Positions 1,503 through 2,645 of a DNA stretch of 3,161 nucleotides are shown here, piece by piece; positions within the stretch are counted from its first letter, which is position 1, and the number at the start of each line of letters is the position of its first letter. The notes beneath the pieces are model-generated. The model did not search any database. It saw only the letters and a program-made list of their open reading frames with translations, and had not been told where the DNA came from. Position numbers and translations under genes: made by a program. This DNA comes from Escherichia phage ECO95 1-6-1: the sequence record OR845352.1; one strand, 5' to 3'.

Positions 1503-1706
1503 ATGTACCGTATGGACAAAATCAGAGAATGGTTCAGTTACAGCTTCGGAGGACTGACTGCGATGGGTGGCATTCTCTCCCTGAATGACTGGGCTGTAAT
1601 CGTTGGTATTCTTTGTACTGTCGGCACATTTGGCATCAACTGGTACTACAAACGCAAAGAGCGTGAGGACAGATTGAATGGCAATGTCACCGGCACTACG
1701 AAATAG
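1503..1706 (+). CDS. S: Class II (two-TMD) holin, S21/pinholin-like, 67 aa with dual-start motif
   Basis: Strong SD (AAAGGGGG at 1489-1496, 6 nt upstream). N-terminus MYRMDKI gives two in-frame Met codons (1503 and 1512) separated by a basic residue, the holin/antiholin dual-start arrangement seen in S21 (MKSMDKI). Two hydrophobic segments: a Gly/Ala-rich TMD1 ([18 protein letters not shown]) and TMD2 ([20 protein letters not shown]), then a charged C-tail (KRKEREDR) resembling the S21 tail. Confidence 0.85.
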
Positions 1707-2181
1707 CGTAATAGCGGCGATAAGTGGCGGGGCTATTGCTATAGCATCTGTGTTAATCACAGGTCAGAGTGGTAACGATGGTCTGGAAGGTGTCAGCTAC
1801 ATACCATACAAAGATATTGTTGGTGTATGGACTGTATGTCACGGACACACCGGAAAAGACATCATGCTCGGTAAAACGTATACCGAAGCAGAATGCAAAG
1901 CCCTCCTGAATAAAGACCTTGCCACGGTCGCCAGACAAATTAACCCGTACATTAAAGTCGATATACCGGAAACAACGCGCGGCGCTCTTTACTCGTTCGT
2001 CTACAACGTGGGTGCTGGCAATTTCAGAACATCGACGCTTCTTCGCAAAATAAACCAGGGCGATATCAAAGGCGCATGTGATCAGCTACGGCGCTGGACA
2101 TACGCTGGCGGTAAGCAATGGAAAGGGCTGATGACTCGCCGCGAGATTGAGCGTGAAGTCTGTTTGTGGGGGCAACAATGA
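1678..2181 (+). CDS. R: SAR endolysin (GH24 T4-type lysozyme with N-terminal signal-anchor-release domain), 167 aa
   Basis: N-terminal weakly hydrophobic Ala/Gly/Ser-rich segment ([19 protein letters not shown]) typical of SAR domains. Catalytic triad with E-8aa-D-5aa-T spacing (E37, D46, T52 in [18 protein letters not shown]). The protein closely resembles the R21/RrrD-type prophage lysozymes as I recall them. It overlaps the holin 3' end by 29 nt out of frame; GAGGA at about 1665-1669. An alternative start is ATG 1684. Confidence 0.9.
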
Positions 2182-2645
2182 GCAGAGTAACCGCGATTAT
2201 CTCCGCTCTGGTTATCTGCATCATCGTCTGCCTGTCATGGGCTGTTAATCATTACCGCGATAACGCCATTACCTACAAAGAGCAGCGCGATAAAAAAGCC
2301 AGTGAGCTGGAGCTGGCGAACGTGACAATTACTGATATGCAGGTACGCCAGCGTGATGTCGCTGCACTTGATGCCAGATACTCGAGGGAATTAGCCGATG
2401 CGAGAGCTGAAAATGAAACTCTGCGTGCTGATGTTGCCGCTGGTCGTAAGCGCCTGCGGATCAACGCCAACTGTCCAGGCTCCTTGCGTAAAGCCCCCAT
2501 CACCTCCGGCGTGGATAATGCAACCGGTCCCCGACTGGCAGACACCGCTGAACGGGATTATTTCATCCTCAGAGAACGGCTGATGGCAATGCAGAAGCAA
2601 CTGGAAGGAGCACAGGAATATATCCGTACCCAGTGTATACCGTGA
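2178..2645 (+). CDS. Rz: Rz i-spanin (inner-membrane spanin subunit), 155 aa from ATG 2178
   Basis: [34 protein letters not shown]... is near-identical at the N-terminus to lambda Rz as I recall it. It has an N-terminal TMD, a charged helical periplasmic domain, and a C-terminal [10 protein letters not shown]...MQKQLEG segment conserved with lambda Rz. ATG 2178 overlaps the endolysin TGA (2179-2181) as ATGA. The ORF track's start at 2166 is a GTG inside the endolysin and seems less likely. Confidence 0.9.
2398..2583 (+). CDS. Rz1: Rz1 o-spanin (outer-membrane lipoprotein), 61 aa, embedded in the +1 frame of Rz
   Basis: [22 protein letters not shown]... has a signal peptide and lipobox (VSAC) with Cys20 followed by Gly (outer-membrane sorting). 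The mature part is proline-rich ([27 protein letters not shown]), closely resembling lambda Rz1. GAGG lies 7 nt upstream of the ATG. It lies wholly within Rz in a different frame, the classic embedded arrangement. Confidence 0.85.

Follow-up and report, generated by a model that had tools for sequence, protein, structure and literature searches.

The lysis cassette described here lies in a stretch of 3,161 nucleotides from Escherichia phage ECO95 1-6-1 (OR845352.1), which is referred to below as the window, and it is very probably an intact late-gene unit of a lambdoid or P22-like temperate phage of enterobacteria. The type of cassette is ordinary and already known: a four-gene set composed of a small holin, a membrane-tethered lysozyme and an Rz/Rz1 spanin. 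Judged by comparison with related phages, the cassette is a patchwork, in which a Q21-type control region with tRNAs is followed by a lambda-S-type leader, a holin of the HP1 family, and an R21-type endolysin with Rz/Rz1 of the lambda/21 family. The four ORFs are all real, each giving a strong family match in a Pfam profile search. They lie on the plus strand in the order holin (1503–1706), SAR endolysin (1678–2181), Rz (2178–2645) and Rz1 (2398–2583), and all reading frames are intact. Gene identity, gene order, motifs and family membership were read directly from the sequence. An earlier note on this DNA had described a holin with two TMDs and a SAR endolysin, followed by lambda-like Rz/Rz1. 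The architecture bears this out, in the form of a class II holin, a SAR endolysin and an embedded spanin pair, and the Pfam families place Rz/Rz1 with lambda. The note had also proposed that the cassette is a mosaic. It is, although the parts are not those that were named.

The spanin genes bear most directly on this point. Rz (2178–2645, plus strand) encodes an i-spanin of 155 aa (PF03245, E = 1.6e-46; phrog_13), and its start overlaps the stop codon of the endolysin gene (ATGA). The protein has an N-terminal TMD with a mean hydropathy of 2.63 and carries cysteines at positions 99 and 153 (99 and 152 in lambda). Rz1 (2398–2583, plus strand) is located entirely inside Rz in the +1 frame and encodes an o-spanin lipoprotein of 61 aa (PF06085, E = 8.7e-20; phrog_3198), which contains the lipobox VSAC with Cys20, a further cysteine at position 30 (Cys29 in lambda, shifted by an insertion of one residue) and nine prolines in the mature part. 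By their profile matches, the two proteins are members of the lambda-type families of embedded two-component spanins. The earlier note had called them extremely close to the lambda proteins, and had expected them to be nearer to lambda than to phage 21. Neither expectation held. As proteins, Rz is 76.8% and Rz1 72.1% identical to the lambda counterpart, and the nucleotide identity to lambda is 85.4%; the protein identity to phage 21 is 75.5% for Rz and 73.8% for Rz1. On these figures, the pair is equidistant from the two phages, and a special affinity for lambda was rejected. The Rz of E. coli phage ASU11 shows 89.7% identity.

In the scheme that had been suggested, recombination placed a pinholin and a SAR endolysin of the phage 21 type in front of lambda's own Rz/Rz1, and the junction would lie near 2150–2200. 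The membership of Rz and Rz1 in the lambda i- and o-spanin families (Pfam; Kongari et al. 2018) agrees with this proposal, as do the first 100 nt of Rz, which are 98% identical to lambda. However, the same families include phage 21 (Kongari et al. 2018), whose Rz matches that of lambda at 97.4% identity and whose Rz1 does so at 98.3%. The Rz/Rz1 of the window show no greater similarity to lambda than to phage 21, which is the very result that the note had named as a refutation. The holin, moreover, is not of the S21 family (see below). At the supposed junction, the nucleotide identity to phage 21 stays at 92–98% throughout 2140–2259, and it continues unbroken at 92–100% from about 1720 to about 2290, with the joint between R and Rz included. 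The proposal is therefore scarcely credible. Since phage 21 itself carries lambda-type Rz/Rz1, the mosaic is not the one that had been put forward; lambda and phage 21 have Rz/Rz1 in common by ancestry, and Rz/Rz1 beside an R21-type endolysin is therefore not evidence of recombination. Read from these alignments, the linkage of R21 to Rz/Rz1 is the ancestral arrangement of phage 21 rather than a new joint, and it is the holin that is the swapped module relative to phage 21.

The endolysin (1678–2181, plus strand, 167 aa) is a GH24 lysozyme with a SAR domain (PF00959, E = 1e-45) and, by its similarity to known proteins, is of the R21/RrrD type. An alternative start at 1684 (plus strand) gives a protein of 165 aa, which is the length of R21. 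The endolysin is 92.8% identical to R21 of phage 21, and it could be aligned end to end with the structures of both RrrD (4ZPU, E = 3e-106) and R21 (3HDE, E = 2.3e-105). The catalytic triad E37-x8-D46-x5-T52 was confirmed as earlier described, together with the N-terminal SAR domain, where 11 of the 19 residues are G, A, S or T and few positions are unlike R21. No cysteine is present in residues 1–53, which include the SAR domain, and the first cysteine is C54. P1 Lyz (1XJT) is matched with an E value of 3e-8, as compared with 2.3e-105 for R21. Disulfide-caged regulation of the P1 Lyz type was rejected on these two grounds, and the view that the protein is R21-like in this respect was borne out. 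For R21, Sec-dependent export, tethering to the membrane and release on depolarisation are established, and we infer the same three properties for the endolysin of the window from its sequence. The protein is 99.4% identical to the endolysin of Salmonella phage S107. The exact protein was found in 1975 index blocks, and a PF16080 holin was adjacent at every place shown.

The endolysin half of the phage-21-type pair that had been proposed is thus sound, but the holin half is not. The holin (1503–1706, plus strand, 67 aa) matches PF16080 (Phage_holin_2_3) over model positions 1–49 of 56, with a score of 74.7 bits against a cut-off of 28.8 (E = 5.6e-21); HP1 Hol itself, the founding member of the family, scores 84.6 bits. 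The match to PF04971 (Phage_holin_2_1, the S21 family) stays below the cut-off, with 20.1 bits against 26, whereas S21 itself scores 122 bits. BLASTP gave E = 7e-6 with 40% identity over 42 aa against HP1 Hol, and E = 0.35 against S21, to which the global identity is 28%, without nucleotide similarity. By these scores, the holin is a member of the HP1 family (PF16080) and not of the S21 family. The features that it has in common with S21 are only the class II two-TMD design, a candidate dual start and a remote-homology cluster, phrog_20, which is matched by both proteins. It is 100% identical to the holin of Salmonella phage S107, and it occurs at 95% identity or more in at least 37 phage records.

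The hydropathy profile of the holin consists of a single hydrophobic block of 40 residues (W10–Y49), which is interrupted by N28-D29. This divides the block into TMD1 (W10–L27) and TMD2 (W30–Y49), after which there is a short charged C-terminus, KRKEREDR. The two TMDs of the earlier description are thereby upheld, and a three-TMD holin was ruled out, as only 40 hydrophobic residues are available. TMD1 had been described as rich in Gly and Ala. Small or weakly hydrophobic residues do account for 9 of its 18 positions, but these are four Gly, three Ser and one each of Thr and Ala, which makes the segment Gly/Ser-rich rather than Gly/Ala-rich.

A depolarising holin of any kind can trigger SAR endolysins, and P1 Lyz is established to work with LydA. 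The holin could, in that case, be a canonical class II holin that forms large holes, and the SAR endolysin would be activated by the depolarisation that is common to any holin. On the Kyte-Doolittle scale, TMD1 also has a higher mean hydropathy (1.02) than its counterpart in S21 (0.16), and its exit from the membrane is for this reason not assured. Nevertheless, a large-hole holin is rather unlikely here. HP1 Hol, which is in the same Pfam family, showed pinholin behaviour in experiments, has a SAR endolysin as its partner and did not release beta-galactosidase (PMC7312051). In all six cassettes that were inspected, the HP1-family holin adjoins an endolysin with a G/A-rich hydrophobic N-terminus of the SAR type, and the common match of the holin and S21 to phrog_20 also speaks for a pinholin. 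By analogy with HP1 Hol, then, the holin of the window probably acts as a pinholin. However, the study of HP1 reported a different active topology, N-in and C-out, and found no dual start in HP1 hol (PMC7312051), so that the mechanism within the family may vary in its details.

The N-terminus of the window holin, M1-Y-R-M4, resembles M1-K-S-M4 of S21 and is likewise a candidate for a dual start, with a Shine-Dalgarno hairpin upstream. Initiation at the possible second start at 1512 (Met4, plus strand) would yield a product of 64 aa, and Met1 and Met4 may, by analogy, provide an antiholin/holin pair. The holin gene comes first in the cassette, and its 3' end overlaps the endolysin gene by 29 nt. 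HP1, HK225, Yersinia phage 210.17, mEp515 and STEC719 are arranged likewise, with an HP1-family holin that overlaps a downstream SAR-type endolysin. In HP1, the PF16080 holin overlaps a SAR-type GH24 endolysin that is followed by a spanin gene, as in the window. However, HP1 is a P2-like myovirus, its Hol is 78 aa long with a longer C-terminus and no dual start, and its endolysin is only distantly related.

Upstream of the holin, the control region resembles that of phage 21. A pR'-like late promoter (1016–1045, plus strand; TTGACA, an 18-nt spacer, CATAAT) lies immediately ahead of the end of Q, which it overlaps. It scored 11 of 12 in a promoter scan, and its -35 hexamer aligns with the annotated pR' of phage 21. 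The sequence at 1053–1100 (plus strand) is nearly base-for-base the terminator annotated in phage 21 (OL657228); by this homology, it would be the tR'-like terminator of a short late leader transcript and the putative target of Q antitermination. Between Q and the lysis genes, ARAGORN identified tRNA-Asn(GTT) at 1101–1175 and tRNA-Thr(TGT) at 1182–1257, both on the plus strand. This pair occupies an equal position in phage 21, in Salmonella phages Oslo and S107 and in the STEC719 prophage of E. coli. Phage 21 has, in the same order as the window, a Q21-type antiterminator, pR', the terminator, tRNA-Asn, tRNA-Thr, a class II dual-start holin, a SAR endolysin and embedded Rz/Rz1. It differs in that its holin belongs to PF04971 rather than PF16080, in that the leader of the window is lambda-like, in that Rz1 and the 3' part of Rz have diverged, and in that bor is found downstream, where the window has the region of a PerC-family gene.

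The untranslated leader (1255–1502, plus strand) was assigned to the lambda S type by nucleotide alignment. It is 92.5–94% identical to the lambda sequence directly upstream of S, and the similarity ends at the ATG. Within it, a hairpin (CCCCUC...AGGGGG; 1478–1497, plus strand) is predicted to hold the Shine-Dalgarno sequence of the first start codon of the holin, and such a hairpin is predicted before the start in lambda alike. The translational-control leader of lambda S has thus been joined exactly at the start codon of an unrelated HP1-family holin that has a candidate Met1/Met4 dual start of its own. That the leader abuts an unrelated holin so precisely suggests that it is an exchangeable regulatory module. 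Besides the leader with its hairpin, lambda has in common with the window the embedded architecture of Rz/Rz1 and the conserved cysteines. However, lambda has a class I holin with three TMDs (S, 12.7% identity) and a transglycosylase that is soluble (R, 19% identity).

A sharp break is present in the window at 2184/2185, but only relative to its closest Salmonella relatives. Bases 1–2184 are 99.5–99.9% identical to Salmonella S.Kent 1-2-1, S107 and chromosomal prophages, and only three sites (1306, 2142 and 2175) differ from the Salmonella P22-like prophages. In the Salmonella P22-like group (S.Kent 1-2-1, S107, BTP1, SPN9CC, ST104, SE1 and vB_SosS_Oslo), the holin is 98.5–100% and the endolysin 93–99% identical to that of the window, and their annotations read class II holin and lysin. 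The Rz/Rz1 of these phages, in contrast, are of another type, with 51–58% identity between their Rz and the Rz of the window, and S107 and its kin have an insert of 88 bp between the endolysin and Rz. In the classification of Kongari et al. (2018), the HK620 o-spanin family includes SPN9CC, ST104, SE1 and Oslo, and PS34 is among the P22-type relatives that belong to the HK97 family.

The right part of the window resembles a different set of genomes. Prophages of E. coli O157:H7 and related strains are 98.2% identical over 1990–2700 and 99.2% identical over 2640–3161, and they show no mismatch to the window between 2014 and 2185. The joint of R to Rz is itself present in the O157:H7 prophages at 98.2%. 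In the lambdoid prophages of O157:H7 and of O103/O26, rrrD is accompanied by Rz, labelled a 'lysis protein', and by a pch-like gene of the PerC family. These prophages have the Rz/Rz1 allele, a small ORF and the PerC gene in common with the window, in which the PerC-family gene lies downstream of Rz within the part that matches the O157-type prophages. Their holin, however, is an S21-family protein of 68 aa, and upstream they have nanS-p, where the window has nin, Q and the tRNAs. By identity, the left part (1–2184) is essentially that of Salmonella P22-like prophages, and the remainder, which begins within the endolysin gene, is essentially that of E. coli O157-type prophages.

There is about an even chance that the window is a natural intergeneric recombinant, in which a Salmonella P22-like arm (nin-Q-tRNA-holin-endolysin) would have been joined to an EHEC lambdoid arm (Rz/Rz1 and PerC, a pch-like virulence regulator) by a crossover inside the R21-type endolysin gene, at about 2014–2141. 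This interval is defined by a small number of informative sites. Two other viral contigs, whose holins are different, contain the exact 198-mer of 1997–2194, which spans the putative crossover; it is not unique to the proposed recombinant, and the interval is therefore stated only relative to the nearest relatives. Neither the combination of the two arms nor the whole window in one piece was found in any collection searched.

A Salmonella-like left part and an E. coli-like right part might instead have been joined by an assembly error over the endolysin sequence that they share. The switch does lie where the two putative parents have identical sequence, and no phage record or complete E. coli genome contains 80% or more of the window. 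The exact Rz protein, with either start, is absent from the gene index; a 60-mer of Rz specific to the window is absent from viral and metagenome contigs, and two other exact patterns derived from the window are absent from species-representative genome contigs. However, lambdoid phages recombine at exactly such common segments, and the reading frames are intact. The STEC719 prophage of E. coli (NZ_CP041411), a natural genome, contains Q, tRNA-Asn, tRNA-Thr, an HP1-family holin that differs by 1 aa, RrrD and RzpD of the lambda/21 type, so the combination of holin and spanin seen in the window is already in the databases. STEC719 is unlike the window in that its Rz/Rz1 allele more closely resembles those of lambda and phage 21, in that iss/bor rather than PerC is found downstream, and in its overall identity of 89.6–92.5%. 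In addition, the Rz segment at 2239–2320 is a finer patchwork, which agrees with ASU11 and L037 at sites unlike L058, and this looks like old recombination rather than a chimera of two parents. Taken together, an assembly error is quite improbable.

For the course of lysis, the following scheme is proposed. It draws on studies of phage 21, lambda and HP1, from which the size of the pinholes, the release of the SAR domain, the use of two holin starts and the function of the spanin are inferred. Q-dependent transcription from the pR'-like promoter would proceed through the terminator and the two tRNA genes into the four lysis genes. The 67-aa class II holin of the HP1 family, probably a pinholin, would build up in the inner membrane, with Met1 and Met4 possibly giving antiholin and holin, and at the trigger time it would depolarise the membrane. 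The R21-type endolysin would by then have been exported by Sec and kept inactive by its N-terminal SAR domain. On depolarisation, it would be released and refold into an active muramidase that degrades the wall, after which the Rz/Rz1 spanin complex would disrupt the outer membrane.

The cassette matters little beyond its correct annotation. The holin-endolysin pair is annotated in dozens of phages and is thus known and ordinary. The type as a whole, with an HP1-family class II holin, an R21-type SAR endolysin and Rz/Rz1, is common and has been annotated in Salmonella P22-like phages and in some E. coli prophages. The combination of a Salmonella-type left arm with a right arm of EHEC type, on which a PerC-family regulator is encoded, is of modest value for tracking virulence-associated cargo among enterobacterial phages.

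The window comes from a lambdoid/P22-like temperate phage and covers its late-control and lysis genes. NinH (160–363, PF06322) and a small NinZ-like ORF (344–523) are followed by the Q antiterminator (520–1038, PF06530), tRNA-Asn(GTT) (1101–1175) and tRNA-Thr(TGT) (1182–1257). The four lysis genes lie exactly where the earlier note had placed them, each with a strong Pfam match: the holin (1503–1706, 67 aa, PF16080, E = 5.6e-21), the endolysin (1678–2181, 167 aa, PF00959, E = 1e-45), Rz (2178–2645, 155 aa, PF03245, E = 1.6e-46) and Rz1 (2398–2583, 61 aa, within Rz in the +1 frame, PF06085, E = 8.7e-20). 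Downstream are a small conserved ORF of 46 aa (2728–2868; full-length match to phrog_2157, unknown function, E = 2.3e-37), a very AT-rich spacer (2901–3070, 24.7% GC) and a PerC-family regulator gene, of which the opening 18 codons, from 3109, lie inside the window before the gene runs off its end (3109–3161). A short GC-rich hairpin (2860–2876) after the 2728–2868 ORF carries a minus-strand terminator score.

The holin had been described as S21-like, after the holin of phage 21, with two TMDs. Its hydropathy profile is a single 40-residue hydrophobic block divided by Asn28-Asp29, which has room for two TMDs and leaves no space for a third. The likeness to S21 holds as architecture, both proteins being of class II design with an M1-x-(R/K)-x-M4-type dual start (MYRM in the window, MKSM in S21), but not as family: the holin scored 20.1 bits against the S21 family PF04971, under the cut-off of 26, and 74.7 bits against the HP1 holin family PF16080 (cut-off 28.8), of which its sequence marks it as a clear member. 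BLASTP gave E = 7e-6 and 40% identity across 42 aa with HP1 Hol, the holin of Haemophilus phage HP1, and E = 0.35 with S21. No nucleotide similarity to phage 21 was found in 1320–1682, and the holin segment from 1503 to about 1700 showed similarity to neither lambda nor phage 21. The profile phrog_20 is matched by the window holin, S21 and HP1 Hol alike, across the same positions, and by such comparison the window holin and S21 are related at the level of remote homology. The window holin also has sub-threshold matches to two further "Phage_holin_2" models. A related holin of 92 aa occurs in phage HK225 (754–1032 of the sequence compared), mEp237 and several Klebsiella phages. Its C-terminal half (TMD2 and tail) is 67–77% identical to the window holin; the N-terminal half, which also starts M-T-R-M, is unrelated and has extra length. 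This protein may represent a chimeric or three-segment version of the HP1-family holins.

We infer that the window holin acts as a pinholin. HP1 Hol, the founder of the family, was reported to kill cells without release of beta-galactosidase and to be needed for a Sec-dependent SAR endolysin to lyse cells on time (PMC7312051). Six HP1-family cassettes were inspected (the window, the prophage-carrying E. coli STEC719, HK225, Yersinia phage 210.17, mEp515 and HP1), and in each the holin gene is followed by one for a lysozyme whose N-terminus is hydrophobic and Gly/Ala-rich. However, two points count against a pinholin: TMD1 is more hydrophobic in the window holin than in S21 (mean hydropathy 1.02 vs. 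0.16), and the HP1 study described an active topology that differs and did not find a dual start in HP1 hol (PMC7312051).

The N-terminal domain of the endolysin is rich in Gly, Ala and Ser, its triad reads E37-x8-D46-x5-T52, and C54 is its first cysteine. It is 92.8% identical to R21, the phage 21 endolysin, and the experimental structures of R21 (3HDE, E = 2e-105) and the DLP12 endolysin RrrD (4ZPU, E = 3e-106) align with it end to end; the match to P1 Lyz (1XJT) is weaker (E = 3e-8). Since the SAR domain has no cysteine, R21-type rather than P1-type regulation is supported, as had been proposed. The gene has two in-frame ATGs two codons apart, 1678 and 1684. Because the structure alignment begins at the third residue, ATG 1684 is an alternative start; it gives 165 aa, matching R21, RrrD and the STEC719 RefSeq annotation. 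The start at 1678 (167 aa) is the phage annotators' choice, and GAGGA at 1665–1669 is better spaced for it.

Rz retains the lambda cysteines C99 and C153, and Rz1 has the lipobox VSAC with Cys20 and a counterpart of lambda Cys29. The earlier note held both to be extremely close to lambda and placed a recombination junction at 2150–2200, between 21-type holin and endolysin genes and lambda-type Rz/Rz1. Lambda (NC_001416) and phage 21 (OL657228) were retrieved, and all four lysis proteins were compared. The window proteins are 76.8% (Rz) and 72.1% (Rz1) identical to those of lambda, so that the closeness was overstated, and 75.5% and 73.8% identical to those of phage 21; by these values they are equidistant from both. 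Lambda and phage 21 are themselves 97.4% (Rz) and 98.3% (Rz1) identical, phage 21 natively carries "lambda" Rz/Rz1, and its spanins have been classed with the Lambda families, both i-spanin and o-spanin (Kongari et al. 2018). Sliding-window nucleotide identity to phage 21, the closest reference for the endolysin and the 5' end of Rz, is 92–100% from about 1720 to about 2290 (92%, 95% and 98% in the windows crossing the endolysin/Rz joint); relative to phage 21 there is therefore no junction at 2150–2200. The same joint occurs in many O157:H7 prophages (98.2% over 1990–2700), annotated as rrrD followed by "lysis protein". With Rz/Rz1 no closer to lambda than to phage 21, the proposed mosaic is refuted on its own terms.

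Upstream, the segment with Q, the pR' -35, the terminator and the two tRNAs (518–1319) also has phage 21 as its closest reference (83% identity). Within 1000–1100, both the -35 hexamer and the terminator downstream of it match phage 21 almost exactly. Phage 21 has its Q-binding element in the intervening stretch, which differs in the window and suggests that the window Q protein (83% nucleotide identity to Q21) recognises a site other than that of phage 21. The tRNA-Asn/tRNA-Thr pair (1101–1257), which separates the lysis genes from the late terminator, occupies the equivalent position in phage 21, STEC719 and Salmonella phages Oslo and S107. The untranslated leader (1255–1502) is 92.5–94% identical to lambda just upstream of S, including the SD-containing hairpin (1478–1497), and this similarity stops exactly at the start codon of the unrelated HP1-family holin, which brings a Met1/Met4 dual start of its own. 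It looks as though this translational-control leader is a module that can be swapped independently of the holin.

The mosaic lies elsewhere. Positions 1–2184 differ from Salmonella phage S.Kent 1-2-1 and two Salmonella chromosomal prophages at three sites only (1306, 2142 and 2175). Beyond 2184 these diverge completely, with an 88-bp insert and then another Rz type (51% identical). This insertion between endolysin stop and Rz (3682–3769 and 6501–6596 in the closest Salmonella relatives), called there as a 31-aa ORF, is missing from the window. O157:H7-type prophages and an IMG/VR contig carry an S21-type holin, an R21-type endolysin, the window's Rz/Rz1 allele and PerC; they match 1683/1724–3161 at 94–95%, with zero mismatch over 2014–2185 and about 98% identity thereafter to about 2934. 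The 3' part of Rz with Rz1 is about 98% identical to E. coli prophage alleles, 90–92% to Stx-phage alleles and 67–90% to the diverged lambda/21 family; 2239–2320 is an even finer patchwork. The window is essentially identical over its left 2184 bases to Salmonella prophages, and over roughly the last 1000 to E. coli EHEC prophages. The simplest history would be a single homologous crossover between 2013 and 2142, inside the last (3') third of the endolysin gene that both sides share; few informative sites bear on this interval. The parents are not uniquely fixed, because two other viral contigs, whose holins differ, contain the exact 1997–2194 sequence. The joined Salmonella-like/E. coli-like sequence was absent from every collection searched; a chimera created by assembly across the common part of the endolysin gene is less likely than the crossover.

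The PerC-family gene, a pch-like transcriptional activator (PF06069 in the full-length homologue), places virulence-regulator cargo directly after the lysis cassette. Its region (spacer 2901–3070 and gene start) matches prophages of EHEC O103:H2 and O26 at 99.2% identity; 673 of 5426 E. coli genomes carry it, frequently with several copies each.

Neither the phage records nor the 5426 complete E. coli genomes include one with at least 80% of the window, the exact Rz protein was not found in the gene index, and a window-specific 60-mer was not found in viral and metagenome contigs. The component pairings are all already on record. Dozens of Salmonella phages have the holin-endolysin pair, and the exact endolysin appears in 1975 index blocks, adjoined by a PF16080 holin in each place shown. 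Hundreds of E. coli genomes carry the endolysin-Rz/Rz1-PerC arm, and STEC719 already unites the window's holin, RrrD and a lambda/21-type RzpD.

The earlier observation was thus confirmed and its functional reading largely right, while its evolutionary reading was wrong in the modules named. The lysis cassette is ordinary and already known. Gene content, order, overlaps, motifs and family membership are observed directly in the window; by analogy with phage 21, lambda and HP1, the lysis genes would be expressed by Q-antiterminated late transcription, and the holin would accumulate and, on a set schedule, depolarise the membrane; a 67/64-aa antiholin/holin pair, in proportions governed by the SD hairpin, may adjust this timing. 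The Sec-exported, SAR-tethered endolysin would then be released and refold, and once the wall is gone, the Rz/Rz1 complex would disrupt the outer membrane.
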